A DNA stretch of 64,000 nt, taken from the sequence record MN655998.1; one strand, written 5' to 3'. Below the pieces are notes generated by a model. The model ran no database searches. It was not told the DNA's origin and was given only the letters and a program-made list of their open reading frames with translations. Below are positions 1,276-59,415 of the stretch, piece by piece. Made by a program: the position numbers and the translations under genes. This DNA comes from Escherichia phage E26. Every line of letters starts with the position of its first letter. The stretch's first letter is position 1.

Positions 1276-3075
1276 ATGCTAATGTTTAATAACTCCGTTA
1301 AATGGTTTACCGGAATTGTAGAAAACAGGGAAGACCCATTAATGCTGGGGCGTGTTCAGGTTAGGATTCATGGTATACATCCTTCGCTATCCGCACACGG
1401 TGACATTCAAGGTCTTCCAACCGAAGATCTATTATGGATTACGCCAGTACAAGATATTACAAGCGCGGCGATCTCCGGTATAGGTCAAAGCCCTACTGGT
1501 ATTGTTGAAGGTTCAATGGTATTTGGTTTGGCTTTAGATGAACGTTATTTAAACTGCGTTATTCTGGGTACTATTGCCGGACAATATACAGAGAAACCAC
1601 TCACTACAGAAGGTTTTTGCGACCCTTCCGGTGCATATCCGCGTTATATCGGTAATGATGTTAATATTCTTGCCCGTGGCGGTATTAACCCAGAAACCGG
1701 ACAAACAACAAAACCTGATAGTGTCTATATTCGAGATGAAAACACTGGAGTTGCAGTAAATCCAGACGACGAGCCATTAGATCAAATTCCGGTTGATGAT
1801 AATCCTGATTTTACAATAGAAAAAATGCTTCGTGGCGATGAGGGATATCGTGAGAAATGGTATCTTGATTCAGAAGGATATCCGACAATAGGCATCGGGC
1901 ATTTGATCATTTATAAGAAAACCAGTGATCTGGGTATTATCAATAATGAACTTTCTAAGCTGGTAGGGCGTGAAGTTACAAACGGAAGACTTACCGCCGA
2001 AGAAGTTAGTAAAGTATTTGCCGACGATATAGAAAAGACTCGTCGTGATATGCGCAAACATCCACGAATTGCACCTGTCTATAATAAATGTAATGCCTCA
2101 CGTCGTATGGCATTAGAAAATATGGCGTTTCAAATGGGTGTTGGTGGATTGGGTAAATTTAAGAATAGTCTTGCTGCGATGTTAGCGGAAGAATGGAAAC
2201 AAGCCTATGATGGATTACGTCAATCGGTATGGGCTAACCAAACTCCAGGACGTTCAAGCCGTGTTTCTAAAATTATTTTAACTGGTAACTTAGAATCATA
2301 TGGCGTAATTGCTCCTAAGAAAGAGGAAACTGTTTCAGATGATCCGAGAGCACGTTTGAGAAATGCCCGTATTGCTGCCTATAAGACGCAGAGAGCAGAA
2401 GAAGACCCAGAAGCACCGTTTACCCCACAAGACACACGAATCATGTTTAAAGAGCCTAAGAGTTCGTATTCTGCGAGGTATCCTTATAACCATGTGTACG
2501 AGTCAGAGAGCGGTCATATTATCGAGATTGATGATACTCCTTCTCATGAGCGATATCATCGCAAACATCCTTCTGGTACATTTGAAGAAACCAGACCGGA
2601 CGGAACGAGGGTAGAAAAGATTGAAGGTGATGATTATCTGATCGTTAAACAAGGCCGGAAAGTAAACGTTAAGGGTAATTTGCAAGTTGTTGTTGAAGGT
2701 GACGCGCAAGTTTATTATATGGGTAATGTGATGCAAACCGTTGATGGTAACGTCACTGAATTTATTCGTGGCAATGTTAATCAGACCGTTGAAGGTACTG
2801 CTAACATGCATGTTGTTGGTGATGTTATCGCACAGCTTGACGCTAATTTGACGGCTAACGTCAAGGGTAATGCTGAATTAATGATCGAGGGTAACACTAC
2901 AGAGACAATTAAAGGTAACTATGATTTAACCGTTGAGGGTAATTTTAATATGACCGTCAATGGCACTAAATCAGATCAGGTTAATGGTGACTGGTCCCGT
3001 AATTGTGGTGCAAGCGTTAAAGATATTGCATCTGGTACAGTTAAAATTGATGGTAGCCGTATTGATCTTGGGTGA
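1276..3075 (+). CDS. 5: baseplate central spike / tail lysozyme gp5
   Basis: 599 aa; internal lysozyme signature (EGYREKWYLDSEGYPTIGIGHL) and C-terminal V-x-G-N beta-helix repeats. Confidence 0.9.
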   Translation: MLMFNNSVKWFTGIVENREDPLMLGRVQVRIHGIHPSLSAHGDIQGLPTEDLLWITPVQDITSAAISGIGQSPTGIVEGSMVFGLALDERYLNCVILGTIAGQYTEKPLTTEGFCDPSGAYPRYIGNDVNILARGGINPETGQTTKPDSVYIRDENTGVAVNPDDEPLDQIPVDDNPDFTIEKMLRGDEGYREKWYLDSEGYPTIGIGHLIIYKKTSDLGIINNELSKLVGREVTNGRLTAEEVSKVFADDIEKTRRDMRKHPRIAPVYNKCNASRRMALENMAFQMGVGGLGKFKNSLAAMLAEEWKQAYDGLRQSVWANQTPGRSSRVSKIILTGNLESYGVIAPKKEETVSDDPRARLRNARIAAYKTQRAEEDPEAPFTPQDTRIMFKEPKSSYSARYPYNHVYESESGHIIEIDDTPSHERYHRKHPSGTFEETRPDGTRVEKIEGDDYLIVKQGRKVNVKGNLQVVVEGDAQVYYMGNVMQTVDGNVTEFIRGNVNQTVEGTANMHVVGDVIAQLDANLTANVKGNAELMIEGNTTETIKGNYDLTVEGNFNMTVNGTKSDQVNGDWSRNCGASVKDIASGTVKIDGSRIDLG

Positions 3076-3083
3076 GGTAACTA

Positions 3084-3650
3084 ATGGTTGAAATTCTTCC
3101 GATGAGTTCAAAATTGGAGGATATCAGCGAGCGAGAAATCTTTGAGGTGGTGTTCTCTTATAAAGCAACGCCACCGGATGCAAATACCACATACACGATT
3201 AAAGAGTTTAAGATCAGCGAGTATCGCCCTAATAAGGGCGTTACCGTTGAAGAAACTAAAATATCTGGTGAGTATAGGGATAGTTTTTCGCTTGGCGCGG
3301 ATTCTCTTAAATATATAACGAAAGATCGAATTAAAAAATCTGCCGGAAGTTTTGATGATTTACCAGATCCAACTACCGCAGATCTATATTATTTTAACGC
3401 TCCTACACGTCTACAGGAGGTTTATACTTATAAAGTAACCCTAACCTATATCCAATCTGTTTCAGAGTCTTCTGGTGGTTCTGGTGAAGGAAATAGTGGT
3501 GGTTCCAATAGCCGAGAGGGTTCTGGTGAAACTAATCCTCCTCCGGTAGTAACCGAGCACACAATAGAGAAAGTTTATACTCAAACCGTTTTTGGAAATT
3601 GGGATGTGTGGGCGCAGCAACTAAGAGATTATGTACATAGGGGTGTTTAA
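3084..3650 (+). CDS. hypothetical protein in the T4 gene 5.1 position
   Basis: 188-aa ORF with RBS, between gp5 and the PAAR gene; Gly/Ser-rich linker [20 protein letters not shown]. Confidence 0.5.
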
Positions 3651-3943
3651 TGGCTGGATTATCCTACGATAAAGCTAAAACTACAGGGCACGGAAACTAC
3701 CCACCTACGGTAATTAATGCAACTCAATCTAAGGTATTTGTTGAGGGTATCCCTGTATTAGTCGAAGGAGACCCAATTACACCACACACAAAAACAACAA
3801 AGCCTTATGATACACACGGGGGAACTACGGTCGCCAGTACCCCGAAAGTATTTGTTACCGGAAAGAAAGCAATTCAAATGGCAGATCGTATTAGCTGTGG
3901 CGATACCGTCGCTATGGCATCACCGAAGGTATTCATAAAATGA
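3650..3943 (+). CDS. 5.4: PAAR-repeat spike tip protein (gp5.4-like)
   Basis: 97 aa, same length and position as T4 gp5.4; start overlaps upstream stop. Confidence 0.6.
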
Positions 3944-5844
3944 CAAAGCAAAAGATTACACAAATTCCTGATATTTTTAATGCTGCTACATTCGATGAAA
4001 TTAAAAGCGCATTAACAGACTGGATGAGAAACCAGGAAGAATTTAAAGATTTTGATTTTAATGGTGCTGGTATTAACGTATTGATGGACTTGCTCGCATA
4101 TAACACTCTGTATATTCAGCAATTCGCTAACGCCGCGCTATATGAATCTTTTATCAGAACGGCAATTAAGCGTAGTTCAGTTGTTCAAGCCGCGCAAGAT
4201 TTAGGATATTTGCCAGCAAGTAAAACTAGTGCATCGACTACAATTATGTTGCACGTAACACATCCGCGAAATCCGGCAAGTATTCGAATCCCACGAGGAA
4301 CTAAATTTATTGCAAGTGTGGATCGCCAGACGTCTTATCCGTTTGTGACTACCGAAGACGTTGTGAGCGTTTTAGGTTCAAATGGTTTATATACGCCTAT
4401 GCTTAAAGTCGCACAAGGTCGTATTGTTCGTACAGAAATGTTATTTGATCCGAAGAAACAAATTCTGATCCGCGATCCTGATATTGACCGCGCTCAGGTT
4501 AAATTGTGGGTAGACGGTGCTGAATGGAAAGACTGGACGCGAGAAAGCATTGTTAATGCAACTGGCGCTAGTAATATTTTCTATATGCGTGAAACCGTAG
4601 ACGGTCATACAGAAATCTTCTTTGGTGAGGGTGAATCAACTTTATCTGCTGCTGGCGGTGCACTGGAAGCAAATTATATTGGTGGACTTAAGCCGTCAAC
4701 TGGCGCTAATATTGTTATCGAATATATCAGCACTAAAGGCGCGGAAGCAAACGGTTCAGTTAATTTCACATACGCGGATACCCTTGCATCTATCTCTATT
4801 GTTAAAATTATTGAGAATCCGACAAATGATCGTGATTATGTCGGTGCGGATGGTGGTGGTGATCCTGAATCAATCGAACGTATCCGTGAACTTGCTCCGG
4901 TAATGCGTGAATCTCAGCGTCGTTGTGTAACTGCTTCCGACTATGAGGCTTTTGTGTCTAGCCGTTTTGGTAGTATTGTTCAGGCGGTACAATGTTTCAC
5001 CGACCGAGAAAAACCGGGTTATGCTTTTGTTGCTGTTAAGCCTAAATCTGGCTTGCGCTTGACAACCGTTCAAAAAGAAGATATGCGGGATTATCTGGCA
5101 AAATATAACCTTGCCCCTATCACGCCGAGCATCATTGACCCTAACTATCTGTATATTAAACAGAATATTAAAGTTTCCTATTCAATCAACGACTTGTCAG
5201 AATCAGAGCAGTGGTTGCGCGGTGCGGTTATTGATCAGATTGATGCATATTATACCGACGAAGTGGAAATTTTTAACCAGACCTTTAGTAAGTCTAAAAT
5301 GCTTGCGCGTATTGACAAAGCTGATGTATCTGTGATAGGTTCTAGTGCAGAAATCGAGATGGTGCGAGAGATCGACAACTTCTATAAAGCACCGATGGCT
5401 GGAATCAAGTTTTTAAACCAGTATAAGAGCGGAATCAAGTCTAGTTCATTCAACTTCGAAAAGGACGACAAGCAATATCCGATCCATTATGTAAGTACAG
5501 AAATGAACAAAGAATCCGGTTTAGCTAAATTGCTGGTTGGACCTTTCCCTGTTGATTCTACAATCGCTTTACCGCACTATTCCGGCACTGATTTTGATAA
5601 AGAGGTTATCGACGGTGCGGACCTATACTTTGAGGTTGGAGAGGTTAAGCATTATGACGACCTTATTTCATGGGATCTGGGTAAACTGAATATCAATAGC
5701 GATCGCTTTACTGGTTCATATATTGAGTTGACAGCTAAACCGATTGCTGATAACATCTTTACTAAAGACGGTTCTTTGATCGTGTTTGAAAACGATCTCC
5801 GTCCTCAGTACACAACTATTAGTCTGGAGGCAATTGCTCAATGA
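3940..5844 (+). CDS. 6: baseplate wedge protein gp6
   Basis: 634 aa; strongly T4 gp6-like ([33 protein letters not shown]). Confidence 0.9.
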
Positions 5845-11444: not shown

Positions 11445-11470
11445 AAGCCGTCCTTGTGGGCGGCTTTTTT
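11445..11470 (+). terminator. rho-independent terminator after the methyltransferase gene
   Basis: AAGCCG / CGGCTT stem followed by TTTTTT. Confidence 0.6.
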
Positions 11471-11480
11471 GTATGTATTT

Positions 11481-32658: not shown

Positions 32659-33900
32659 ATGACTCATATTTTTACTGAACTGTTGCGGGAATCTACTTCC
32701 TCAGTAGCTAACCAGACAGCGCGACCGCAACTATTATCATTAACTCGCGCGGTAAACAACCTGATTTTCTCTGATCTGGTAGCAATCCAGCCAACGGATC
32801 AACCAGTATCTGCATTGTACGGCCTACGTTATCTTAATCGTGATGGTCAGATGACTTTCCGAACTGCTACAACCTACGGTGGCGCGGCTGGTGATCGCAC
32901 AGAGATTGAAGAGTTTTCAAAAGAAAAATCTTATGACGAAGGCGCACTGTTCAAATCAGACGATGTTGTATACGAAGTTGTGACCGCTGGTACAGTCGGT
33001 GAAGATGCCGAAACTCCAGAAGCTGCAATCTTTAAAGGCGTAATGACAAACAAAATTCGTTTCTATAGCGATTGTGCATCGGTAGAATACTTTGAAGATA
33101 AAAACACCGAAATTTCGTCTACCTCTATGCAGTTTGATAAATGGCAGGTTAATGTAGGTTCTCGTAAACTGAAAACCTCATTCACGACCGAATTGATGCA
33201 GGATCTTGAGGCAAGCCAAATCAACTCTGAAAACTCTGTAATTGATCTTCTGGCTACGATCGCTTCCGAAGAGATCAACAAAGATATTATTCAGAAGTTG
33301 ATCACTGTATCATCTCGCTATAAAATTAAAGGGATCACCCCTGACGGCGTACTTTCTCTCGTTAGCGTTCAGGATGCACCAGCACAAGCGCGTGAACTTT
33401 ACCGCTATGCTTGCGAAATGAGCAATCAAATGTTGCGGACTTCCTCCTTTGCTGGTACATACGTTTTGGCGTCTTCTCGCGTGGTTGGCCTCCTGCAATC
33501 TTCCGGTTGGATGGAAGAAACCGACAATGCTCTAAGCGAAGGTCGTCTACGTTGCGGTCTGGAAGTGTACGCAGACACGACAACACCTTTCGATTATATG
33601 CTCGTTGGTTGTAAGCACATGATCGGTGATATGGAGAGTGTAGGTTCTCTGTTCTACTCCCCATATACAGAAGCCGACGGCGCTGGCGCGTATAAGAGTG
33701 TAATTGACCCTAATAGCTTCCAGCATCATGTAGCTATTATGAATCGTTATTCACTCTCTGTCAACCCATATACATCAAAAGTTGATCAGGAAGAACACCA
33801 GGTCATCAAGGGTGACGATTGGGGTAAAATGGCTGGACGCTCTGAAATGTCCTACATTTTAGGAATCGAACTGCCACCGCTTGAGATTGACAACGCTTAA
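32659..33900 (+). CDS. 24: head vertex protein gp24
   Basis: 413 aa; gp23-paralog features, size and position as T4 gp24. Confidence 0.9.
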   Translation: MTHIFTELLRESTSSVANQTARPQLLSLTRAVNNLIFSDLVAIQPTDQPVSALYGLRYLNRDGQMTFRTATTYGGAAGDRTEIEEFSKEKSYDEGALFKSDDVVYEVVTAGTVGEDAETPEAAIFKGVMTNKIRFYSDCASVEYFEDKNTEISSTSMQFDKWQVNVGSRKLKTSFTTELMQDLEASQINSENSVIDLLATIASEEINKDIIQKLITVSSRYKIKGITPDGVLSLVSVQDAPAQARELYRYACEMSNQMLRTSSFAGTYVLASSRVVGLLQSSGWMEETDNALSEGRLRCGLEVYADTTTPFDYMLVGCKHMIGDMESVGSLFYSPYTEADGAGAYKSVIDPNSFQHHVAIMNRYSLSVNPYTSKVDQEEHQVIKGDDWGKMAGRSEMSYILGIELPPLEIDNA

Positions 33901-34488
33901 CTAAATATCTAACCAAGACAAGTCAGATCCGCCCAAGATTTTTTCGACGGCGGATCTATTTTCTTGATGATATAAGTTAAAACATGGTATCCCATGTCTA
34001 CGGGCAACATAAACAGCAATTCTAGTTCCTCCCGAAACGATTCCATTAACTTCTTTCGCCCAGAATATCACACAATCTACAGGATCATCAAGTGTCTCAC
34101 CTAAGACTTGAGCAACATTTCTAGAAAACAGATTTTGCATGTATAACGGTATAGAACGAGGATTATCATAAACGTGTTCTAATTCATCCATCGCCAGATT
34201 TTTTTGTTCTAAGGTTTGCCATGCAATCACATCATGACCGTTATGCTTGTGGTCATAAAACTTCCAATTTGGAATGAAAATTTTTCTATAATCTGGATCG
34301 TAATACTTCATGAAAGCATTGTCCATACCGTAAGCCCCTCCAGAATGCGCTACAACGCGATTTTCTGACAATACCCTCCCAATGGTACTAGCCATTATCA
34401 AAATGTCGCTAGGCGCTTTTCTAGAGCCTATTAAAGCACATCTACGAAGTGGTTTTACTCCAAATAGATCTTGTAACTGGTCAAACAT
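33901..34488 (-). CDS. DprA/Smf-like (SLOG-type Rossmann fold) protein
   Basis: 195 aa; ALIGSRKAP...VVAHSGGAYGMDNAF fits the GSR / SGxAxGxD pattern of DprA-type domains; GGAGG RBS. Confidence 0.45.
   Translation of the reverse strand: MFDQLQDLFGVKPLRRCALIGSRKAPSDILIMASTIGRVLSENRVVAHSGGAYGMDNAFMKYYDPDYRKIFIPNWKFYDHKHNGHDVIAWQTLEQKNLAMDELEHVYDNPRSIPLYMQNLFSRNVAQVLGETLDDPVDCVIFWAKEVNGIVSGGTRIAVYVARRHGIPCFNLYHQENRSAVEKILGGSDLSWLDI
33925..33965 (+). terminator. terminator-like hairpin for gene 24, lying inside the 3' end of the convergent gene
   Basis: AGATCCGCC / GGCGGATCT 9-bp stem followed by ATTTTCTT. Confidence 0.45.
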
Positions 34489-34641
34489 AATATTTCCTCC
34501 ATAGAAAGCAATATCATACTACAAGTTAATAACAAATACAAGTATCCGCGTAGCGGAAGCGAGCACAGCGAGCAATAAAACACTTCCAGTAATTGATTAA
34601 TAAATGTTCGAAACAAATTTTTATTATTCTATAAGATAAGT

Positions 34642-34666
34642 CTTCGTTTTGATCATAATTTAATCA
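34642..34666 (+). repeat. direct repeat copy 1 (CTTCGTTTTGATCATAATTTAATCA)
   Basis: 25-nt exact copy; flanking bases also similar. Confidence 0.7.
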
Positions 34667-34791
34667 TACATGTAAAAAACTACACAAAAGGATATCGCTT
34701 CGCGAACTCCTACGGAGTATAACATTTGTGTTACAATATGTAGTGATTAATAATTAACCAAAGATACATTTTCTATGTTCTAAAGATCTTT

Positions 34792-34816
34792 CTTCGTTTT
34801 GATCATAATTTAATCA
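34792..34816 (+). repeat. direct repeat copy 2 (CTTCGTTTTGATCATAATTTAATCA)
   Basis: identical 25-mer 150 bp downstream of copy 1. Confidence 0.7.
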
Positions 34817-34868
34817 AACAGTATTAATATTGTGCACATGTAAACTAAAATTATGTTAATAACATATA

Positions 34869-34894
34869 CAAAAAAGCCGCCCCGAAGGACGGCT
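34869..34894 (-). terminator. rho-independent terminator (UUCG tetraloop) after the 145-aa gene
   Basis: minus strand AGCCGUCC-UUCG-GGGCGGCU then U-run. Confidence 0.65.
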
Positions 34895-34902
34895 AATGTT
34901 AA

Positions 34903-35340
34903 TTATTTGTTGATAACGATCTGATTTCGGCGAATGGTAACATTACTCTTAGAGATGATCAGATCATCCGGCACTACGTTAGTTTTGTATGGCTGGAAGC
35001 GAACAAGCATCTGATTGCGTTTAGACCCTTCCTTAATCTTGATTTCCATCTGGATATTGTTGCCTACGTGAGCAACCGCAATTTCACCTTTATTCTCATA
35101 GACCAACTTGCTGGTAACGTCTCCTGCAAAAGCCTTAATAACTTGCAATGCTTCGTCGTATGCGGTAGAGCTGTGAACTTTCAGAAGGCCAGCCGTAGCA
35201 AGACGGGAGCAAGTGATCGCCGGAGATTGCCAAACATCAACATTAATTTGCTCAATCAGAGTAACACCGCCCTGATCAACTGCTTTGAATGCTTCAAACA
35301 TTGCCTTTTTCATTGCTACGTGGTTTTTACGGAATTTCAT
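34903..35340 (-). CDS. hypothetical protein
   Basis: 145-aa ORF with GAGGTGA RBS; no recognisable motif. Confidence 0.55.
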   Translation of the reverse strand: MKFRKNHVAMKKAMFEAFKAVDQGGVTLIEQINVDVWQSPAITCSRLATAGLLKVHSSTAYDEALQVIKAFAGDVTSKLVYENKGEIAVAHVGNNIQMEIKIKEGSKRNQMLVRFQPYKTNVVPDDLIISKSNVTIRRNQIVINK

Positions 35341-35386
35341 AATTAGTCACCTCTATTGATTAGTTATTCAAAATATTAATTACAAA

Positions 35387-35662
35387 TCAGGACATTGCCC
35401 GTTTGAATGCGTCCATTATAACAGTGTTATTTGGCTTGTCAACACGTTTTTGAACTTTATTTTTAAATTTTTTGTTGATGTGGTGTTTACGATAAACAAC
35501 CTTTTCACGGTTGGCGTAAGCCTCGCGTGCGTCTTTTACCATCAACCATGCCTTAGCCGCATCTTGTCCGCTGATCCCGCCAATCTTCTTAGCAATATCA
35601 ACAAAATTAAGACCGTGGTCTTCGCGTAGCATGTAAACCATTAACGCTGTTTTCTTGTCCAT
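35387..35662 (-). CDS. hypothetical protein (91 aa), possible HTH
   Basis: ATG overlaps the upstream TGA (ATGA); ORF-track start at 35770 has no RBS. Confidence 0.5.
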   Translation of the reverse strand: MDKKTALMVYMLREDHGLNFVDIAKKIGGISGQDAAKAWLMVKDAREAYANREKVVYRKHHINKKFKNKVQKRVDKPNNTVIMDAFKRAMS

Positions 35663-36013: not shown

Positions 36014-36023
36014 GCACTAAAAA

Positions 36024-36049
36024 CAAAAAAGCCACCCCGAAGGATGGCT
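36024..36049 (-). terminator. rho-independent terminator after hoc (paralog of 34869..34894)
   Basis: minus strand AGCCAUCC-UUCG-GGGUGGCU then UUUUUU. Confidence 0.65.
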
Positions 36050-51587: not shown

Positions 51588-51800
51588 TTATAATGCACCA
51601 TCGAGCAATTGCTCTAATGTGTATCCTGAATAGTCTTTTTCAATCAGGATATATTTTCCTACTCGTTTAATACAACCGCGCATTTCAACGTATTCTGCGT
51701 AGTTGATGGTGCGAGTTGTTCCATCTTCTAGCAAAGCAGTACCGATTTCGTTAATGCGGTCATAAGTTACGTCGGTAATGATGATTTCGATGTTAGCCAT
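51588..51800 (-). CDS. hypothetical protein (70 aa)
   Basis: ORF with conserved cassette leader and RBS. Confidence 0.55.
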   Translation of the reverse strand: MANIEIIITDVTYDRINEIGTALLEDGTTRTINYAEYVEMRGCIKRVGKYILIEKDYSGYTLEQLLDGAL

Positions 51801-51865
51801 TTGATACTCCTTAGTAGTTCGTTTCGGTATGGGTGTATTATGATATACACCCTCTGTTATGTCAA
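51801..51865 (-). promoter_or_regulatory. PeSL-like early promoter/stem-loop cassette a
   Basis: minus strand TTGACA, 17 nt, CATAAT with GGGTGTAT..ATACACCC inverted repeat, then conserved leader CCGAAACGAACTAGGAGAATCAA-ATG. Confidence 0.6.
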
Positions 51866-51871
51866 CAACTT

Positions 51872-52051
51872 TTAGAACATTTTTGAAATTAATTCTGCTT
51901 TGATTTCGCAGAGAACATCTAAAGATTTCTCGTCACCCGCTTTTGCTGCTTCTGATTGCATTTTTGAAATGGCTTCAACGTAAGTGCAATTATAAGCCGC
52001 TTGAACTTTAGCGATTGCGATGATTGCCGATTCGATGGTTAAGTGTTTCAT
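51872..52051 (-). CDS. hypothetical small protein (58 aa)
   Basis: below ORF-track cutoff; ATG preceded by the cassette leader RBS (GGAGAATCAAAC). Confidence 0.45.
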   Translation of the reverse strand: MKHLTIESAIIAIAKVQAAYNCTYVEAISKMQSEAAKAGDEKSLDVLCEIKAELISKMF

Positions 52052-52112
52052 GTTTGATTCTCCTTTCGTTTCGGTATGTGTGCATTATAGGGGATCACCG
52101 ATCCCCTGTCAA
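52052..52112 (-). promoter_or_regulatory. PeSL-like cassette b
   Basis: TTGACA, palindromic 17-bp spacer GGGGATCGGTGATCCCC (two GATC sites), TATAAT, conserved leader; -35 overlaps the end of the DUF262 gene. Confidence 0.6.
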
Positions 52113-52640
52113 CAACTTTTTTGAATTATTTTTTAATTGCTCATCTTGTAATAGAGCAATAACATGCTGGCGATGTTCTTCCGATTGAGGCACACCGAAA
52201 AAGTTTGTTTTGTAGAAATATTCTAATCGATCTTCTCGTGTGCTCTCTTCCATCATGATCGCGGGTAGTCCGAGATTTCGGAAACGTCGCTTTTCTGCTG
52301 GCGTAAAATCACTGTAATACAACATAGAATCATCATTACCAGCAATGCTAAACTCATCTTTCATAAAGGAGAATATTGCGTTTAAACGCTGTTTACCGTC
52401 CACGATTTCGATCTCATAGCGAGAGCCATCATCAATCTTAGCCATTGCGATAGCACCAACCGGAAAATCATTAATCAGGTTTTCGATAAACATACGTTTG
52501 TTTTCGGTGTCCCATACCAAAGGACGCTGATAATCTGGGTTCATGTTGATATAGCCATCTTCTAACCACGCCTCATAAACAGAGATGACAAAGTTTTTAG
52601 TATTGGTATAGTAACGGCGTTTAGGCGTTAAACGGTTCAT
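52095..52640 (-). CDS. DUF262 / ParB-like nuclease-domain protein (GmrSD N-terminal-domain-like)
   Basis: 181 aa from ATG (MNRL, AGGAGA RBS); motifs DYQRPLVW and DGKQRL; ORF-track start at 52676 is TTG. Confidence 0.6.
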   Translation of the reverse strand: MNRLTPKRRYYTNTKNFVISVYEAWLEDGYINMNPDYQRPLVWDTENKRMFIENLINDFPVGAIAMAKIDDGSRYEIEIVDGKQRLNAIFSFMKDEFSIAGNDDSMLYYSDFTPAEKRRFRNLGLPAIMMEESTREDRLEYFYKTNFFGVPQSEEHRQHVIALLQDEQLKNNSKKLLTGDR

Positions 52641-52641
52641 G

Positions 52642-52971
52642 TTATAGTCTCCTGAATGGATCATCACGTAAATCAATATCTTTTAAGAACTCATCCCATG
52701 AATGGCGGATATTGTTCTTAATTCTCCAGATAAGCGCAGGGATTGAACGCTCTCCCATCTGGAAGTAAGGATCATATGATCCATATGCCCAATATGCTAC
52801 TACAATTCCACAATCAGCGCAATAATATTCTATTTCACTTGCTGGCGACCAAAGTCCATCAATATGATCGGTGATCCTGCTTTCGATGTTATGGCTATGG
52901 CAATCAGGGCAACGGATGCAATGACCTTGTTTATCGTAATTTGACGTTAGCGAATACTTAAACAATCTCAT
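52642..52971 (-). CDS. Zn-ribbon protein
   Basis: 109 aa; CxxC..H and CxxC pairs (CIRCPDCHSH, CADCG); start overlaps upstream stop by 1 nt. Confidence 0.5.
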   Translation of the reverse strand: MRLFKYSLTSNYDKQGHCIRCPDCHSHNIESRITDHIDGLWSPASEIEYYCADCGIVVAYWAYGSYDPYFQMGERSIPALIWRIKNNIRHSWDEFLKDIDLRDDPFRRL

Positions 52972-53687
52972 TATAGATCCTTATTTGCTTCAAATACTGC
53001 CTTTGCGAATCCTCGCGGGGTAAGTGACCTTATAGTCTTTGTTTTCGTTCCTTTCCCGCCTAGCTTAGAATGCTGTTTACTGTACCCTTTATTAATCTGC
53101 AACGGTTTCTTTTCTGGCATTATAAAGCCTTGTCCGGTCCATAAGCAAGTCCTTTTCGGGTACATATCACGGGCGGCAATATACTCAGGAAAAGTAGGAT
53201 GTTTATCATCTTCCGGCAAATAACCGCCATATTCCCACGGATGGAACATATAATCAGGCTTACGCCACATGCTAGAGATAACGCTTACAGGATTCTCTAT
53301 CATGTAGGGAACTCCTAGCCATTCACCCAAATAAGCGGTTATTTTAGCTGCCCGTACATCATGAACTTGAATCAATGGTCCTTGCTCTCGTTTCTTTCGT
53401 TCAAAGTGTGCAGCGCCACTAACAGCTAAATTGGTGCACGGTGGGAATGCAAATATAATATCCGGTTTCCCCCATTCAAGGTCCATTGCTCTTTCTAGCC
53501 AGTTCAAATCAATCCATGTGTTTACATATGTAATGTTTGGATGTTCAAATCGGGTATTATATTTTTTGTATGTACCGTGGTCGCCATCGTCAGCATTAAA
53601 GCAGATCACCTTATGACCTGCTTTAGCCCATTCTAACCCCATTATCCCCGATCCGTCAAAGTTGCAGAATATTAATTTTTGTTTCAC
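52971..53687 (-). CDS. compact DNA (cytosine-5)-methyltransferase-like protein
   Basis: 238 aa; motif I FDGSG, PC motif FPPCTNLAVSG, ENV-like MIENPV; GTG start overlapping upstream TGA with GGGGG as RBS. Confidence 0.5.
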   Translation of the reverse strand: MKQKLIFCNFDGSGIMGLEWAKAGHKVICFNADDGDHGTYKKYNTRFEHPNITYVNTWIDLNWLERAMDLEWGKPDIIFAFPPCTNLAVSGAAHFERKKREQGPLIQVHDVRAAKITAYLGEWLGVPYMIENPVSVISSMWRKPDYMFHPWEYGGYLPEDDKHPTFPEYIAARDMYPKRTCLWTGQGFIMPEKKPLQINKGYSKQHSKLGGKGTKTKTIRSLTPRGFAKAVFEANKDL

Positions 53688-53935
53688 GCTGCCCCCATTG
53701 GTTTGATAGTAACAGAATCTAAAAGACCTTTGTTAGCCAGTTCGCGGCAAGTTTTCAGATCCGCAACTTCCCAGCCAGCCGCAATCAGGTTATCAATCAG
53801 GCTGTTAGCAATTTCTTCGCTCATGAAAGAGCACTGTTTGCCGATGGTGTAGCGTACACGCTGTAATTTCAGTTTACGGAAGCCTTTAACGTTCAGGTCT
53901 TTAGCGATTTTCTTTGCGGTTTCGATGTTAGCCAT
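53684..53935 (-). CDS. hypothetical protein (83 aa), first gene of the operon
   Basis: ORF with cassette leader RBS. Confidence 0.5.
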   Translation of the reverse strand: MANIETAKKIAKDLNVKGFRKLKLQRVRYTIGKQCSFMSEEIANSLIDNLIAAGWEVADLKTCRELANKGLLDSVTIKPMGAA

Positions 53936-54004
53936 TGTTTGATTCTCCTAAGTGGTATCTCGTCTTGATGGTTGTATTGTAGGGGAGTTATCCTCCCCTG
54001 TCAA
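53936..54004 (-). promoter_or_regulatory. PeSL-like cassette c
   Basis: TTGACA, spacer GGGGAGGATAACTCCCC (inverted repeat), TACAAT, leader. Confidence 0.55.
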
Positions 54005-54018
54005 CACTTTTTATAAAA

Positions 54019-54186
54019 TTATTTGTTAATTTCCGGTGCGTTGCTTGGATAGTAACCTTCTTTAACTCCGAGGTATTTCGCAACCATCCCTACAATCTTC
54101 TGTGCTACTACAATGTCAAATTTCAGATAATCTTCACCGTAGGTTTCAATGATATATGCTTCACATGCTGCTTTAGTCTCGAACAT
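54019..54186 (-). CDS. small protein (55 aa), paralog copy 1
   Basis: MFETKAACEAYIIETYGEDYLKFDIVVAQKIVGMVAKYLGVKEGYYPSNAPEINK; near-identical second copy at 57287..57454. Confidence 0.6.
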   Translation of the reverse strand: MFETKAACEAYIIETYGEDYLKFDIVVAQKIVGMVAKYLGVKEGYYPSNAPEINK

Positions 54187-54249
54187 TTTGATTCTCCTAT
54201 TTCGTTTCGGTATGTGTGTATTATAGGGGATCTCCCGATCCCCGTCAAC
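54187..54249 (-). promoter_or_regulatory. PeSL-like cassette d
   Basis: TTGACG-like -35, spacer GGGGATCGGGAGATCCCC, TATAAT, leader. Confidence 0.55.
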
Positions 54250-54263
54250 AACTTTTTTTAAAA

Positions 54264-54545
54264 TTATTCGTGATTAGTTTCGATGTTGTGCATTTTGCAC
54301 CAGTTCAGCCAATCGCCCAGTTCTTGATAGTTGATGCTTTTATCTGCTGCCATCGTTTTTGTCTTGATACCCATATGTGCGTTATGAGTAAGCATTTTTA
54401 CAGTGAACTCGATTTTATCGCCTTTAGCTTTAACATCAACCAGTTTGGTCCACTGGCTACCAGCACCGCGAATGTTCATGCCAACGATGTTTCCGATGTA
54501 TGCTTCTTTGTTTTTCAGGATTTCGGTTGCTTTGATGAATTTCAT
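54264..54545 (-). CDS. hypothetical protein (93 aa)
   Basis: ORF with cassette leader RBS. Confidence 0.5.
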   Translation of the reverse strand: MKFIKATEILKNKEAYIGNIVGMNIRGAGSQWTKLVDVKAKGDKIEFTVKMLTHNAHMGIKTKTMAADKSINYQELGDWLNWCKMHNIETNHE

Positions 54546-54607
54546 TTTTGATTCTCCAGTTCGTTTCGGTATGGGTGTATTATGCTATGTTCTTACTTTG
54601 GTGTCAA
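54546..54607 (-). promoter_or_regulatory. PeSL-like cassette e
   Basis: TTGACA, 17 nt, CATAAT, leader; no spacer palindrome in this copy. Confidence 0.5.
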
Positions 54608-54615
54608 CAACTTTT

Positions 54616-54885
54616 TTAGATATTTTCAGAAATAAATTTTAAAACTTGACGTAAATGTTTCTCATCTTTGATAGTCGCCGGAAGTTCTTCTTTTACTTCC
54701 TGTGCAAGATAGATATTTCCGTTCCAAGTGAAAGATCCGTCTTCGTTTACGCGATAGCTGAACATCCACTCGCAATCATTTTCGATTTCATATACACACA
54801 GAAGAGTGTAATCTTCAAAGCTATTGAGTTCAAGGTCGAAGCCGTGACGTTTTGCAAAGTTGGTAGTGGTTTTAGTCAGTGCCAT
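54616..54885 (-). CDS. hypothetical protein (89 aa)
   Basis: ORF with cassette leader RBS. Confidence 0.5.
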   Translation of the reverse strand: MALTKTTTNFAKRHGFDLELNSFEDYTLLCVYEIENDCEWMFSYRVNEDGSFTWNGNIYLAQEVKEELPATIKDEKHLRQVLKFISENI

Positions 54886-54954
54886 TGTTTGATTCTCCTA
54901 AGTGGTATCTCGTTTCGATGTGTGTATTATGCTATAGGCGTGTTCTGGTGTCAA
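54886..54954 (-). promoter_or_regulatory. PeSL-like cassette f
   Basis: TTGACA, 17 nt, CATAAT, leader. Confidence 0.5.
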
Positions 54955-54978
54955 TTCTTTTTTTAAAATTTTATGCAA

Positions 54979-55004
54979 TAAAAAAGCCGACGCTAAGGTC
55001 GGCT
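54979..55004 (-). terminator. rho-independent terminator after paralog A1
   Basis: minus strand AGCCGAC-CUUAGC-GUCGGCU then UUUUUU. Confidence 0.6.
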
Positions 55005-55011
55005 AATAAAA

Positions 55012-55320
55012 TCATTTAGACAAATAATCATTCTGTGCAATCCGGTCAGCATGTTCCGGCGTTACGTCAATTGCAATCACTTTAACGCGTGCTTTCTTGC
55101 GACCTGGGTTTTCTCGTAGCCAGTGCGTGTGACCGTACAAATTTTTATACTTTGATGCTTCTTCGAAGGTACGGATCGGACCTGGGTAATCAGCGTAAAG
55201 GATCTCTAGATCTTCGGTGATGTAAAAATATACATCGTAATTGCTGTTCTCTAGCTTAAGCAGAGACTTTCGGAACATTGGGAGATTTTCGCGGGTAAAT
55301 TCAAAGATATTATCTTTCAT
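55012..55320 (-). CDS. HxHW-family paralog A1
   Basis: 102 aa from ATG (MKDN, GAGGA RBS); GHTHWL then VKVIAIDV. Confidence 0.55.
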   Translation of the reverse strand: MKDNIFEFTRENLPMFRKSLLKLENSNYDVYFYITEDLEILYADYPGPIRTFEEASKYKNLYGHTHWLRENPGRKKARVKVIAIDVTPEHADRIAQNDYLSK

Positions 55321-55344
55321 AGTATTATCCTCAATAGTTGGATG

Positions 55345-55367
55345 AAAAGGGGGGCTTAACGCCCCCA
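55345..55367 (-). terminator. rho-independent terminator (GGGGGCGUUAAGCCCCC family)
   Basis: same hairpin as at 51562..51582 and, on the other strand, after wac. Confidence 0.6.
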
Positions 55368-55371
55368 TATA

Positions 55372-55659
55372 TTAAAACAGTCCTTCCTGTACACCGTAAT
55401 AGAGTTCGTCGCTGATAATTTCATTAATGCGACGGTGTGCATATTCCTGATTTGCGAAGTTGTCAGCAAGTTCTACTTTAGTTTCTCCGTCATGAGTCCA
55501 TTTAGTGATAACTTTACCATCTGCAAATTTGAAGTTGAACTCTTTAGCTACCGCATCGCGTACCAGACGTGCAAACTTATTGTTGCGGATTGCATTGTCG
55601 GTTTCGTGTGCAGCGTGAGCGAATTTGTTAACTTTCAGAGTGATAGTAATGTATGCCAT
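55372..55659 (-). CDS. small protein, family C paralog 1
   Basis: 95 aa; RLVRDAVAKEFNFK matches REVRKALAKEFNTK in 58672..58983. Confidence 0.5.
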   Translation of the reverse strand: MAYITITLKVNKFAHAAHETDNAIRNNKFARLVRDAVAKEFNFKFADGKVITKWTHDGETKVELADNFANQEYAHRRINEIISDELYYGVQEGLF

Positions 55660-55734
55660 AATTTGATTCTCCTAGTTAGAAAGTGTATCTCGTTTCGATG
55701 GGTGTATTATGCTATACACCCGACCTTATGTCAA
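55660..55734 (-). promoter_or_regulatory. PeSL-like cassette g
   Basis: TTGACA, 17 nt, CATAAT flanked by GGGTGTAT..ATACACCC, leader. Confidence 0.55.
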
Positions 55735-55740
55735 CACTTT

Positions 55741-56019
55741 TTATAAAATAATTTTTTGATATTTTTCTATGATGTTCGTGTAAGTCACATCAACCGCTAG
55801 CACCGTTGCTTCGAATCCACCGTTTAGCCAATGGCTATGGTCATGATCGTGAAAGAAACCAAGACCAGTACGAAGACCTTCTTTATATTCTGCGCGTACA
55901 TTTAGATCATCATCGATAAACAGATAAAACCATGAATTTTTACTAGGATTGATGATACAACCTTTCAGATTAGGGAGAATATCACGACTAAGAATAAACT
56001 TATCACCTACTTTGAACAT
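55741..56019 (-). CDS. HxHW-family paralog A2
   Basis: 92 aa from ATG (MFKVGDKF, GAGGA RBS); HSHWL then VLAVDV. Confidence 0.55.
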   Translation of the reverse strand: MFKVGDKFILSRDILPNLKGCIINPSKNSWFYLFIDDDLNVRAEYKEGLRTGLGFFHDHDHSHWLNGGFEATVLAVDVTYTNIIEKYQKIIL

Positions 56020-56033
56020 AATATTTTCCTCAC

Positions 56034-56342
56034 TTATAAAGTTTGACCGTTGTTTTTCGCGTAATGCTGAATGCGTGCTTGATCTGCTTCCGCTGGTGAT
56101 AGATTCCATGCAACCACTACAACTTCTGACGCATCGTCATCCGTTTTTGATACCCAATGATTATGATTCATACAATTGTTTGCTATCGCGTGAGCAAATG
56201 ATTTCATCACTGGAGATGTATAATCATAGTAACGGATTTTCAGATTTTCATCAACATACAAGTAGATCGTATAAGGTTTATATTCAGTAACCAGTAACAG
56301 ACAGTTACGCAATTCTGGGAAAATCTTTTTAGTTAATTTCAT
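56034..56342 (-). CDS. HxHW-family paralog A3
   Basis: 102 aa from ATG (MKLTKK, GAGGA RBS); HNHWV then VVVVAWNL. Confidence 0.5.
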   Translation of the reverse strand: MKLTKKIFPELRNCLLLVTEYKPYTIYLYVDENLKIRYYDYTSPVMKSFAHAIANNCMNHNHWVSKTDDDASEVVVVAWNLSPAEADQARIQHYAKNNGQTL

Positions 56343-56343
56343 T

Positions 56344-56553
56344 TTATAATCCTCGGTCGCGGCTATAGTACACGGTACGCCATACAATTTCATGTTTCGT
56401 GTCGCTCCAGCACACGATCTCATTTACTCTTAAATCTTTGTTATCAACAAAAGATGAACATTGTGACGTTTCTTTCATCATTTTATCTGCTGTTTTCTCA
56501 TCAAATACAGCACAGATTTCTTTATACACTCGATAATCTTTAAACTTGCTCAT
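56344..56553 (-). CDS. small protein, family B tandem paralog 1
   Basis: 69 aa; MSKFKDYRVYKEICAVFDEKTADKMMKETSQCSSF against MSKFKDYKAYQQILRVYEPEFAEKMMEDASKCPSF in the neighbour. Confidence 0.55.
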   Translation of the reverse strand: MSKFKDYRVYKEICAVFDEKTADKMMKETSQCSSFVDNKDLRVNEIVCWSDTKHEIVWRTVYYSRDRGL

Positions 56554-56555
56554 AA

Positions 56556-56765
56556 TTAACACCAATCAAGAGTTTTTGAAAACACATCTATCCATTGTTG
56601 AGTATATGCGGTTTCTTTCCATGATACAATACCGGTAGAATAATGGTTTTTGTTTCCAGAAAAGGACGGGCATTTTGATGCATCTTCCATCATCTTTTCG
56701 GCGAACTCTGGTTCGTATACTCGCAAGATCTGTTGATATGCTTTGTAGTCTTTAAATTTGCTCAT
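56556..56765 (-). CDS. small protein, family B tandem paralog 2
   Basis: 69 aa; see paralog 1. Confidence 0.55.
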   Translation of the reverse strand: MSKFKDYKAYQQILRVYEPEFAEKMMEDASKCPSFSGNKNHYSTGIVSWKETAYTQQWIDVFSKTLDWC

Positions 56766-57030
56766 AATCGTTAACTACCTTATCAGCTTCTTTTATTGTT
56801 TTTACATCAACTGCGATAACCCGTAAAGGTTCGTCGTGGTTCCACCAATGATCGTGAATATCAGCTTGTGATTTATCACCAAAGGAATCACGAATATCAT
56901 TTTTACATTTATAGCTAATGTGACCGTCATAGTCAACATAAAGGTAATTATCGAAAATCGGCGTTTTTAAGATCATACCGAAAAATCTTTCTTTGTGTGT
57001 CTTATCCAGCGTTGCAGTAATTCGCATCAT
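56752..57030 (-). CDS. HxHW-family paralog A4
   Basis: 92 aa; HDHWW then VIAVDV; GAGGA RBS. Confidence 0.55.
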   Translation of the reverse strand: MMRITATLDKTHKERFFGMILKTPIFDNYLYVDYDGHISYKCKNDIRDSFGDKSQADIHDHWWNHDEPLRVIAVDVKTIKEADKVVNDYEQI

Positions 57031-57042
57031 AATATATTCCTC

Positions 57043-57222
57043 TTAGAAAGGGATGGTCATTTCTTGAGCTTGTACATTCTCGTTAGGATTAAACTTCATC
57101 CAACCGATATTGTCTACCAGCATATGTACATTTTTATCATACCCTACGTGAGTAGTCAACACTAAATGTGCTTTACCTTCAACGATGATTTCCATGTACT
57201 TCTGAACTTCGATAGCTTTCAT
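57043..57222 (-). CDS. hypothetical small protein (59 aa)
   Basis: below ORF-track cutoff; cassette leader RBS. Confidence 0.45.
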   Translation of the reverse strand: MKAIEVQKYMEIIVEGKAHLVLTTHVGYDKNVHMLVDNIGWMKFNPNENVQAQEMTIPF

Positions 57223-57283
57223 TTTGATTCTCCGTTTGTTGTCTTGATGGGAGTATCTTACTACTCCCTTTAATCATTGTCAA
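57223..57283 (-). promoter_or_regulatory. PeSL-like cassette h
   Basis: TTGACA followed by GGGAGTA..TACTCCC inverted repeat around a weak -10, leader. Confidence 0.45.
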
Positions 57284-57286
57284 CTA

Positions 57287-57454
57287 TTATTTGTTAATTT
57301 CCGGTGCGTTGCTTGGATAGTAACCTTCTTTAACACCCAGATATTTTGCAACCATTCCGGTGATCTTCTGTGCTACTACGATATCGAATTTCAGGTAGTC
57401 TTCACCGTGGGTTGCTACAATGTATGCTTCGCATTCTGCTTTAGTCTGGAACAT
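57287..57454 (-). CDS. small protein (55 aa), paralog copy 2
   Basis: MFQTKAECEAYIVATHGEDYLKFDIVVAQKITGMVAKYLGVKEGYYPSNAPEINK; last ~47 nt identical to copy 1. Confidence 0.6.
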   Translation of the reverse strand: MFQTKAECEAYIVATHGEDYLKFDIVVAQKITGMVAKYLGVKEGYYPSNAPEINK

Positions 57455-57518
57455 TTTTGATTCTCCTATATCTCGTTGGTATGTGTGTATTATAGGGGAT
57501 CTCCCGATCCCCTGTCAA
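57455..57518 (-). promoter_or_regulatory. PeSL-like cassette i
   Basis: TTGACA, spacer GGGGATCGGGAGATCCCC, TATAAT, leader. Confidence 0.6.
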
Positions 57519-57526
57519 CAACTTTT

Positions 57527-57835
57527 TTATTCTTCATCTTCATTTTTATCTTTATATGCGTACTTCATAAATTTGTCTGCTACTTTGTCCGCGTTTTCAG
57601 GTTCTACGTCTGACGCTAGGACAACAGCTAGTTCGGTTTTGTCGTTTCCATCATACCAATGATTATGAGTGTCGTTTTCTTTGATATAAAACGAATCATT
57701 TGGAGTTGTGCGACAATATACGTCTAAATTCCCATCGATATAAAAGATCCAATCCGAATACAAAATGATTGTTTTAGCCAGATTTTTATTGTCTCTTACA
57801 AAAGGTTCCGCGACAAATAGCTTAGTTTGTTCCAT
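57527..57835 (-). CDS. HxHW-family paralog A5
   Basis: 102 aa from ATG (MEQTK, GAGGA RBS); HNHWY then VVLASDV. Confidence 0.5.
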   Translation of the reverse strand: MEQTKLFVAEPFVRDNKNLAKTIILYSDWIFYIDGNLDVYCRTTPNDSFYIKENDTHNHWYDGNDKTELAVVLASDVEPENADKVADKFMKYAYKDKNEDEE

Positions 57836-57851
57836 AGTAATTTCCTCAAAA

Positions 57852-58043
57852 TTATACAGCTTCGTAAACTTCCCAATGTCCAACACCAGCACGCTTAACG
57901 AAAAGGTTTTCTTTGATGTTATTCATAAACGTCTGGATGGATTTAATGCGGTTGGAAGGTTTCCAGTCTTCGTTAGCATTGCGGCGATACATTATAACAT
58001 TACCAGATCGCTTATATTCAGCAACCATTTTAAGACCACACAT
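57852..58043 (-). CDS. hypothetical protein (63 aa)
   Basis: ORF with GAGGA RBS. Confidence 0.45.
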   Translation of the reverse strand: MCGLKMVAEYKRSGNVIMYRRNANEDWKPSNRIKSIQTFMNNIKENLFVKRAGVGHWEVYEAV

Positions 58044-58099
58044 AATAATATCCTCAATTTGTGGGAGAGTATTACCCTCCCAATTATTGTTATACTACA

Positions 58100-58402
58100 T
58101 TACGCAAAATGGCGTGTCAATGCTTCTTTTGCTGTTCCGCTAAGATTCTCGATCTCTCCTGGCATAACATCAACCGCCAGAACTTCTACAACATCCTCTG
58201 ATCCTAACCAGTGAGTATGACCTTTGTAGAACTTGATATCCCATTTAACGCTATCGCTAGCCCACCACACATCACCGTCGATAAAGTTGATGTAAAGCAC
58301 ACTACGACACATTGAATTAATTACTTTCAATACTGCGCCTTTCATCTCTTCCACGGTATGGTCTTCCATTTTGAAGACCTCACCTACCTGAACTTTTGCC
58401 AT
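58100..58402 (-). CDS. HxHW-family paralog A6
   Basis: 100 aa; GHTHWL then VLAVDV; GAGAGGTGA RBS. Confidence 0.55.
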   Translation of the reverse strand: MAKVQVGEVFKMEDHTVEEMKGAVLKVINSMCRSVLYINFIDGDVWWASDSVKWDIKFYKGHTHWLGSEDVVEVLAVDVMPGEIENLSGTAKEALTRHFA

Positions 58403-58419
58403 TTAGTCACCTCTCTTTA

Positions 58420-58599
58420 TTACATAACAATCACGCCAGCCGTTGAAAGTTGATGTTTCAACTGAGCATTTTCTGCTACCGTCAAATCAATGATTTCTTG
58501 TGACGCTGCAATCATATAGCCATTGGTGATATTGTTTTGCATCAGTTCAATGGTTTCTTCGTTGTAGCGGATTTTAGCGATGATTTCGTTGAAGTTCAT
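58420..58599 (-). CDS. hypothetical small protein (59 aa)
   Basis: below ORF-track cutoff; cassette leader RBS. Confidence 0.45.
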   Translation of the reverse strand: MNFNEIIAKIRYNEETIELMQNNITNGYMIAASQEIIDLTVAENAQLKHQLSTAGVIVM

Positions 58600-58663
58600 A
58601 ATTGATTCTCCTAGTTCGTTTCGGTATGTGTGTATTATAGGGGAGTTTAGCCTCCCCTGTCAA
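58600..58663 (-). promoter_or_regulatory. PeSL-like cassette j
   Basis: TTGACA, spacer GGGGAGGCTAAACTCCCC, TATAAT, leader. Confidence 0.6.
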
Positions 58664-58671
58664 CAACTTTT

Positions 58672-58983
58672 TTAAAGTTTTTCCATGATAACGGTCATAA
58701 TTACATCTTCTGCGCGAGCGGTCAGATTATCAGCGTCAGCATGTGGGCGGTTGGTTGTTACAGAGATAACACCGTTGCGCACTGGTTTGATATTGATATC
58801 AAGATGATCCGCGAAACGTTCGCCAGTTACAGAATGAATTTTGGTGTTAAATTCTTTTGCCAGTGCCTTGCGAACTTCACGAATCAGGATAGCGTTTTTC
58901 AGTTGGTTCTCCGCGCTCATGGTCTTCTGGGTGTTCATGGTTCCGTCGAAGTCAATCATTGGCAGCGTTACGATGTATTTCAT
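58672..58983 (-). CDS. small protein, family C paralog 2
   Basis: 103 aa; shares the VRxAxAKEFN motif with 55372..55659. Confidence 0.5.
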   Translation of the reverse strand: MKYIVTLPMIDFDGTMNTQKTMSAENQLKNAILIREVRKALAKEFNTKIHSVTGERFADHLDINIKPVRNGVISVTTNRPHADADNLTARAEDVIMTVIMEKL

Positions 58984-59057
58984 TTTTGATTCTCCGTTTA
59001 AGAAAGTGTGTTTCGTTTTGATGTGTGTAGTATAGGGGATCGGTGATCCCCTGTCAA
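58984..59057 (-). promoter_or_regulatory. PeSL-like cassette k
   Basis: TTGACA, palindromic spacer GGGGATCACCGATCCCC, TATACT, leader. Confidence 0.55.
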
Positions 59058-59070
59058 CAACTTTTTTGAA

Positions 59071-59415
59071 TTATTTTTTCATGAGCTTAATTGCTTCTTC
59101 CATAGCCAACACATTTCGATAGTTAGGGTATCGTGTTAGATCGTCATACATTCGCTTAAGGGTGGAAACTTCCTCAAACTCTGGGTTTTCTAGATACAGT
59201 TGAACAAATTGTTTCTCTATCATCTCTGCTTTTAGCTTGTCTGCTTGTTCCTGTTCATATGATTTAGTTGGACCCAACACCAACAAAATGATAAAGGTGA
59301 TCAACGGGCTAATGATCAACGATAGGATAACATAACCGATAACGCTACGGTTTAAACGGCTTGCATACATGCCTACCAGGAAAACAAAAAGGATATAGAT
59401 AAACAGAAAGAACAT
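59071..59415 (-). CDS. small membrane protein
   Basis: 114 aa; two N-terminal hydrophobic helices then charged tail. Confidence 0.5.
   Translation of the reverse strand: MFFLFIYILFVFLVGMYASRLNRSVIGYVILSLIISPLITFIILLVLGPTKSYEQEQADKLKAEMIEKQFVQLYLENPEFEEVSTLKRMYDDLTRYPNYRNVLAMEEAIKLMKK

Follow-up and report, generated by a model that had tools for sequence, protein, structure and literature searches.

The 64,000-nucleotide stretch of Escherichia phage E26 (MN655998.1) analyzed here, referred to as the window, belongs to Krischvirus, the RB49/phi1/JSE-like T4-type coliphages. It contains a 25-bp direct repeat, CTTCGTTTTGATCATAATTTAATCA, in a gap of 414 bp (34489-34902, 29% GC) between two minus-strand genes, a DprA-like gene and ORF165. 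As judged from sequence comparison, the repeat is the most conspicuous part of a larger element that is clade-wide, under selection and DNA-level in nature, consists of Fis-type sites and lies between terminators. Most likely the element serves as a control region bound by protein, and is neither an RNA gene nor debris. Binding of a protein of some kind at its AT-rich units is probable, and the more specific reading, in which Fis-type binding sites form an array upstream of the DprA-like promoter, is put forward tentatively, at a probability of roughly 0.4. Among the three candidates offered by the original prediction, paired operator or protein-binding sites appear to fit best: each repeat copy holds a Fis-type core, a second core lies 56 bp away, and the pattern is conserved in distant relatives. 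That prediction had missed that the 25-mer is part of a unit of about 95 bp in a layout of terminator, unit and hairpin, and that the flanking genes are on the minus strand.

The repeat and its AT-rich units

An exact search returned CTTCGTTTTGATCATAATTTAATCA twice on the plus strand, at the predicted positions (34642-34666 and 34792-34816), with no third match in the window at up to three mismatches and no match in 100 shuffles. The repeat is real and non-random. The two copies are identical over 26 bp (34641-34666 and 34791-34816); over 38 nt (34633-34670 and 34783-34820) they agree at 89%, with a spacing of 150. A second block of 10 nt, TGATTAATAA, is repeated at 34594 and 34744, again 150 nt apart, and the 29 nt separating the two repeated blocks are alike at 11 of 29 positions, which is not above shuffles. 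The repeat looks like two conserved blocks within an otherwise diverged duplication. The near-palindrome TTGAT..ATCAA ascribed to the repeat is found only in copy 2; copy 1 reads ...ATCAT. The surrounding DNA is AT-rich and without a convincing open reading frame (ORF), as had been described; it holds three small ORFs of 53 (TTG start), 21 and 23 aa, none of them convincing.

The 25-bp repeat is the best-conserved part of an AT-rich unit of about 95 bp. Matches to a 13-unit profile are confined to unit positions, and none occurs elsewhere in the window or in the flanking DNA of relatives that was examined. Features of the units are listed by position, strand and description.

34641-34666, no strand assigned: repeat copy 1, 26 bp exact, holding the Fis-type core GATCATAATTTAATC at 34651-34665
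34791-34816, no strand assigned: repeat copy 2, 26 bp exact, holding the Fis-type core GATCATAATTTAATC at 34801-34815
34740-34832, minus strand: unit a, AT-rich and dyad-symmetric, the upstream copy in gene sense; profile match 34831-34741, E 3e-13
34589-34679, minus strand: unit b, the second copy, proximal to the DprA-like gene; profile match 34676-34593, E 1.5e-9
34595-34609, no strand assigned: the other Fis-type core in unit b, GATTAATAAATGTTC; belongs to the 10-nt repeated block
34744-34760, no strand assigned: 17-bp near-palindrome TGATTAATAATTAACCA, in which the other Fis-type core of unit a is located (34745-34759)

Fis-type sites and their conservation

Fis is a DNA-bending nucleoid protein of the host. 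The 15-bp Fis-type core, the pattern of its high-affinity sites, has the form G-N2-Y-A-W5-T-R-N2-C, with GNNYAWWWWWTRNNC as the strict pattern. The published core consensus is GNtYAaWWWtTRaNC (PMC2816674), and the rules for Fis sites call for an AT-rich center, G/C at ±7 and a Y-R step at ±(3-4), with T/A preferred at ±8 and no G directly before the core (Hancock et al. 2016, PMC4784862). Eight strict sites are present in the window, four of which are inside the gap (34595, 34651, 34745 and 34801); the shuffled gap is expected to hold 0.04, and four were reached in none of 2000-3000 shuffles. Repeat copy 1 contains the site at 34651 and copy 2 the one at 34801. There are two sites per unit, 56 bp apart in the window, and three per unit in some relatives. 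All four window sites possess G/C at ±7 and the Y-R step at ±(3-4) (TA/TG, TA/TA, CA/TA), and their flanks have T/A at ±8 in seven of eight cases and G at -8 in none. TGRTTAATNATTAAYCA is matched without mismatch at one place in the window, the near-palindrome TGATTAATAATTAACCA. Transcription from the DprA-like promoter is predicted to start near 34506 on the minus strand, and the site centers (near 34602, 34658, 34752 and 34808) lie about 96, 152, 246 and 302 bp upstream of this point.

Deeper relatives are metagenomic phages recovered by ORF165 searches, with ORF165 identities of 92, 88, 68, 64, 57, 56 and 47%; they are designated here by L numbers. Their gaps contain strict sites as well (L019, 6; L027, 6; L030, 4; L025, 2; L026, 2; L029, 1; L036, 1), which with the four of the window make 26 over 8 lineages; 0.02-0.07 sites are expected in each gap, and the 3-6 kb flanks hold 0-2. 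The two sites nearest the promoter hold their distance from the predicted start (window, -96/-152; L019, -100/-153; L027, -94/-159), and sites can lie closer together in relatives, with three sites 20 bp apart in L027 and two 19 bp apart in L019. The 13-unit alignment has four conserved blocks, and blocks 1, 2 and 4 are Fis-type sites (G and C 14 bp apart, AT-rich center); its invariant columns G18, A22 and C32 are core positions -7, -3 and +7. Among 17 aligned Krischvirus genomes, six of the seven polymorphisms inside the four window sites keep the pattern, and five of the seven fall on N positions (expectation 0.42 per change, p ~0.03).

In two phages, L004 (G2248) and L013 (PHB13), the matching position is changed in both repeat copies (34652 A>T, 34802 A>G). 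The changes abolish GATC in both copies, at position -6, which is unspecified in the Fis-type core. A role for GATC and Dam was considered and rejected, as GATC is conserved neither in the relatives of 88% identity nor in L026.

The original prediction had named absence of the repeat from close relatives as a result that would count against it. This is not so: the whole gap is retained in all 58 GenBank Krischvirus genomes (RB49, phi1, JSE, GEC-3S and others), whose records are 95-99% identical to 33800-35400, and units are present in the deeper relatives. The metagenomic contigs share the order hoc, gp24.3 (DUF2774), ORF165, gap, DprA-like gene and gene 24. Their gaps are all non-coding, are about 276-575 nt long where complete, and have 27-33% GC. 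The layout common to the relatives on the gene strand is T1, AT-rich unit, hpA and hpB, second unit, GCTCGCT..GCTCGC, SL3, promoter, Shine-Dalgarno sequence and DprA-like start, and the window has the following parts.

34869-34894, minus strand: T1, intrinsic terminator of ORF165, AGCCGTCC-TTCG-GGGCGGCT followed by T6; stem kept via compensatory changes in relatives
34675-34718, minus strand: central module between the units, with mini-hairpins hpA and hpB followed by a U-rich tract (34675-34689)
34706-34718, minus strand: mini-hairpin hpA, ACUCC-GUA-GGAGU
34695-34705, minus strand: mini-hairpin hpB, UCGC-GAA-GCGA
34545-34557, minus strand: SL3 hairpin, UCCGC-UAC-GCGGA, preceded by GCTCGCTGTGCTCGC (34559-34573)
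34513-34541, minus strand: sigma70-like promoter of the DprA-like gene, TTGTAT (34536-34541), 17-nt spacer, TATGAT (34513-34518)
34496-34500 and 34486-34488, minus strand: Shine-Dalgarno sequence GGAGG and start codon ATG of the DprA-like gene

Unit repeats are longer in some relatives, reaching 104 nt at 89% in L019, 64 nt at 91% in L029, and 45 plus 34 nt in L027. When the minus-strand repeat of the window, TTGATTAAATTATGATCAAAACG, is compared with that of L027, TTGATTAAAATATGATCAAACG, a 23-nt core is identical at 21 of 23 positions in both L027 units, whereas the fourfold-degenerate sites of ORF165 are identical at only 17 of 36. This difference indicates that the unit core is under selection. 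In four of the six lineages with two units, the two units of one genome are closest to each other, indicative of gene conversion or shared constraint.

Should the Fis-type sites be used, the units would act at the DNA level as a site array for Fis or for another dimeric protein of equal site geometry. The bound protein would bend the AT-rich DNA, and a nucleoprotein structure could arise between the intrinsic terminators, on the upstream side of the weak sigma70-type promoter that serves the DprA-like gene. Such a structure might modulate transcription from that promoter and possibly also from weak promoter-like sequences inside the units. The output of the putative binding is presumably transcriptional.

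Several observations weigh against an array of Fis-type sites. Only the pattern match points to Fis as the putative binding protein, and about eight transcription-factor consensus sequences were compared before Fis, so that the match carries a multiple-testing cost. Only some Fis-consensus sequences are bound with high affinity (PMC2816674). Only one or two strict sites are found in the gaps of L025, L029 and L036. Unit number varies: most lineages have two, L026 has a single unit as far as its contig extends, and L036 has one diverged unit-like stretch that was recognized by eye only and missed by the unit profile. Among the 17 Krischvirus genomes the repeat copies have 5 variable columns in 50, and are thus no better kept than the rest of the gap. 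The GC-rich SL3 between the nearest site and the -35 hexamer would be unusual for a Fis-activated promoter, and the promoter-like boxes inside the window units are degenerate (TTGATC-17-TATTAA, TTGATC-18-TAAAAA, TATAGA/TTAGAA). The consensus sequences of ArgR, Fur, CRP and H-NS, compared by eye, did not fit.

Arrays of Fis sites are known from the upstream activating regions of E. coli stable-RNA promoters (rrnB P1) and from the two-site Hin/Gin recombinational enhancers. The gap resembles them in having several 15-bp sites (G/C at ±7, Y-R step, AT-rich center, A/T flanks) clustered upstream of a sigma70-type promoter. It differs from host arrays in sitting in a virulent T4-type phage, in having sites at about -96 and beyond instead of -71 with a GC hairpin between sites and promoter, and in arranging its sites as a duplicated unit of about 95 bp with terminator-like hairpins between. 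In the literature searched, no description of Fis sites in T4-type phages was found. Early transcription in T4-type phages is thought to be controlled almost wholly by promoter strength and by phage-made modifiers of RNA polymerase; a site array for a host nucleoid protein, if real, would be a new host-dependent layer of control in these phages. Since Fis is abundant solely in fast-growing cells, the array could act as a sensor of growth state.

Alternative readings of the element

The proposal that the repeats mark the ends of a small non-coding RNA found no support. A wider RNA-level reading is unlikely. In it, a minus-strand transcript of each unit would fold into a long AT-rich hairpin that functions as a small RNA or as a signal for RNase III, processing or stability, while the GC hairpins would terminate transcription. 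The units have dyad symmetry on both strands, and their mean fold z-score is -1.64 on each, so that neither strand is favored; on the sense strand the window's own units score -0.35 and -1.15. RNAalifold finds no consensus pairs in the 13 units. The named outer stem has no compensatory changes, and 222 of 500 shuffles do as well. Natural variants in the 17 Krischvirus genomes break predicted unit pairs without compensation. Scans of the gap for tRNA genes and Rfam families gave no match, for Rfam not even at E<5. A strong terminator, T1, is located upstream, and no early promoter is predicted in the gap, either here or for RB49 by Nolan (2006), who placed one upstream of ORF165 and none within the gap (97435-97847) and whose supplement gives a terminator after ORF165 at 97821-97838. 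Dyad symmetry on both strands, together with the lack of a consensus RNA fold and of compensatory changes, suggests that the units are DNA motifs.

A replication-origin-type element, also named in the original prediction, would use the AT-rich units as initiator sites and as an unwinding region, with ORF165 as a possible initiator acting together with host Fis; this reading is quite improbable. Priming of DNA synthesis could come from transcripts that start at weak promoters within or close to the units, as at T4 oriE and oriF. To our knowledge, RB49-like phages lack the MotA-dependent origins of T4. The closest parallels are iteron origins with an adjacent winged-helix initiator (plasmid Rep, Vibrio RctB) and the 12-nt iterons of T4 oriE (PMC3016281). 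Like them, the gap has repeated DNA resembling protein sites, here in an AT-rich setting near a strand switch, and the predicted fold of the adjoining ORF165 product weakly resembles initiator winged-helix domains. That structural similarity is marginal, however, and the gap has one or two long units per genome spaced 125-170 bp apart in place of several short, evenly spaced iterons; no cluster of short direct repeats at helical-turn spacing is present. A DnaA box, an integration host factor (IHF) site, a Mot box and the late promoter TATAAATA are absent from the gaps or not conserved across lineages.

A combination of both ideas has also been considered, namely a clade-specific nucleoprotein element in which host Fis sites and the winged-helix-like ORF165 product together with that product's constant position beside the gap would make up either an origin of replication or a sensor of growth phase. 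The sensor would couple gene expression or replication of the phage to the amount of Fis in the host cell and hence to the cell's physiological state. This combined reading is given very little credence.

The third alternative is that the gap has no present function and is the relic of a tandem duplication or of recombination of the type seen with promoter-early stem-loop (PeSL) cassettes, its copies being kept alike by gene conversion in a phage highly prone to recombination. PeSLs are known from RB49 and phi1 (Arbiol et al. 2010, PMC2839356; Comeau et al. 2014, PMC4122927). The gap shares several features with them, including the phage group, intergenic GC-rich stem-loop terminators with AT-rich promoter regions, modular exchange and a plastic region near hoc. 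GC-rich stem-loops (T1, hpA/hpB, SL3) flank the units, with stems kept in relatives, and SL3 with the DprA-like promoter resembles a PeSL with its upstream stem-loop. Unlike PeSLs, of which about 50 are dispersed over each genome, the units are unique to one gap and lack the consensus TTGACA-17-TATAAT; the window units contain no site with at least 9 of 12 matches on the gene strand. Membership of the units in the PeSL family was rejected, as an nhmmer profile of the 11 window PeSLs (51.8-59.1 kb) has no match in the gap at E<=10. These 11 PeSL-type early promoters (51779-59095, minus strand) share a common leader and have the form aaaaagttgTTGACA-ggggatc..gatcccc-TATAAT-ACACACAT(A)CCGAAACGA...GGAGAATCAAA-ATG.

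Several observations are in keeping with a relic. An 11-mer in the leader of the PeSL at 59057, ATCAAAACGAA, is also found in the minus strand of the 25-bp repeat, TTGTAT(A/T)TGTTATTAAC is present after T1 and again after SL3, and the units of a genome are more alike than units of different genomes in the four of six lineages mentioned above. Among members of the genus the repeat varies as much as the gap around it, which has 13% variable columns among the 17 genomes compared with 8-16% in the flanking genes. The region is plastic. In L031 (SRR21291472_17602, 3496-4310) a 197-aa ORF with a weak DUF723 match, which at a guess encodes a homing endonuclease, and a 73-aa ORF are inserted between ORF165 and T1. 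L033 (2029-2693) is a mosaic in which the ORF165 protein is only 88% identical to that of the window, whereas the gap DNA beyond the terminator reaches about 97%, which suggests a recombination joint near T1. In G2248 a patch is replaced at window positions 34848-34866. Against a relic, the unit core and its position have outlasted synonymous saturation, the gap is retained in every one of the 58 genomes though direct repeats should favor deletion, and the PeSL profile has no match there. The conserved columns, moreover, coincide with a specific 15-bp pattern whose specified positions are avoided by polymorphisms. Absence of present function is rather improbable.

Promoters, hairpins and neighboring genes

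Promoter-like sequences are found in the units on both strands. In the window, plus strand, repeat copy 1 has a -35-like TTGATC at 34649-34654, and copy 2 has TTGATC at 34799-34804, with a degenerate -10, TATTAA, 17 nt further on (34822-34827). Seven of the 11 units from outside Krischvirus possess a good sigma70 match at the homologous position and on the same strand (TTGAT(G/T/C)-16/17-TATAAT), whose -35 and -10 are the reverse complements of the ATCAAACG core and of ATTAATTATACT, respectively; a further sigma70 match, at the unit apex on the gene strand, is present in some relatives. A single conserved promoter inside the unit was rejected as an explanation, since AT-rich palindromes yield many -10-like hexamers and the window boxes are degenerate on both strands; it is kept as a secondary possibility only. 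The promoter and Shine-Dalgarno arrangement of the DprA-like gene is also present in L019, L025 and L027, and the relatives' sigma70-like promoter reads TTGTAT/TTGTTT/TTGATT, 17 nt, TATGAT/TATAAT/TATAGT.

The SL3 stem is retained via compensatory changes in L019, L025, L027 and L029 (UCCGC/GCGGA, UCGGC/GCCGA and CCCGC/GCGGG among lineages). Stems of hpB around GAA are UCGC, UUGC or AUGC, and its heptamer GCGAAGC is invariant in the window, L019, L025, L026, L027 and L030 while the flanking stem co-varies; d(GCGAAGC) is an unusually stable DNA mini-hairpin. Long-range pairing between GCGAAGCGA in hpB and UCGCUUCCGC before SL3 is possible and was seen by eye.

The genes next to the element are as follows.

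33901-34488, minus strand: DprA-like gene, downstream of the element; abuts the convergent gene 24
32659-33900, plus strand: gene 24, capsid-vertex, convergent with the DprA-like gene
34903-35340, minus strand: ORF165, 145 aa, no Pfam family; always upstream of the element

ORF165 homologs among GenBank phages are confined to Krischvirus, and its product is predicted to have a fold with a weak likeness to winged-helix domains. In other T4-type genera, represented by Klebsiella phage JD18 (L034) and Morganella phage MP1 (L035), the DprA-like gene directly follows rnlB (RNA ligase 2) without a gap, and the position of this junction is occupied in Krischvirus by ORF165, its terminator and the 414-bp gap. 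JD18 and MP1 have neither the gap nor units, which rules out a general tie of the units to the DprA-like gene. ORF165 and the DprA-like gene stand out as a conserved module.

Existing annotations of the gap in the 58 sequenced coliphages, which are of a therapeutic type, consist of the ORF165 terminator and occasional spurious small ORFs. They disagree with one another: L008 (1467-1628), L014 (1531-1629) and others call ORFs of 32-53 aa that overlap the promoter and SL3. The small ORFs (53-aa TTG, 21-aa and peptides of 8-12 aa starting in the repeat) were rejected as genes, as their frames are not conserved and their annotation is sporadic and inconsistent. In UPWr_E1 (L007, 913-1629) a 1-nt insertion joins a spurious upstream ORF to the DprA-like gene. 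T1 is the sole part of the gap with relatives elsewhere in the window (11446, 36023 and 54980); near-identical intrinsic terminators (AAAAAAGCCGCCCCGAAGGACGGCT and variants) are present behind different genes at 34868-34894, 36023-36049, 11446-11474 and 54980-55007.
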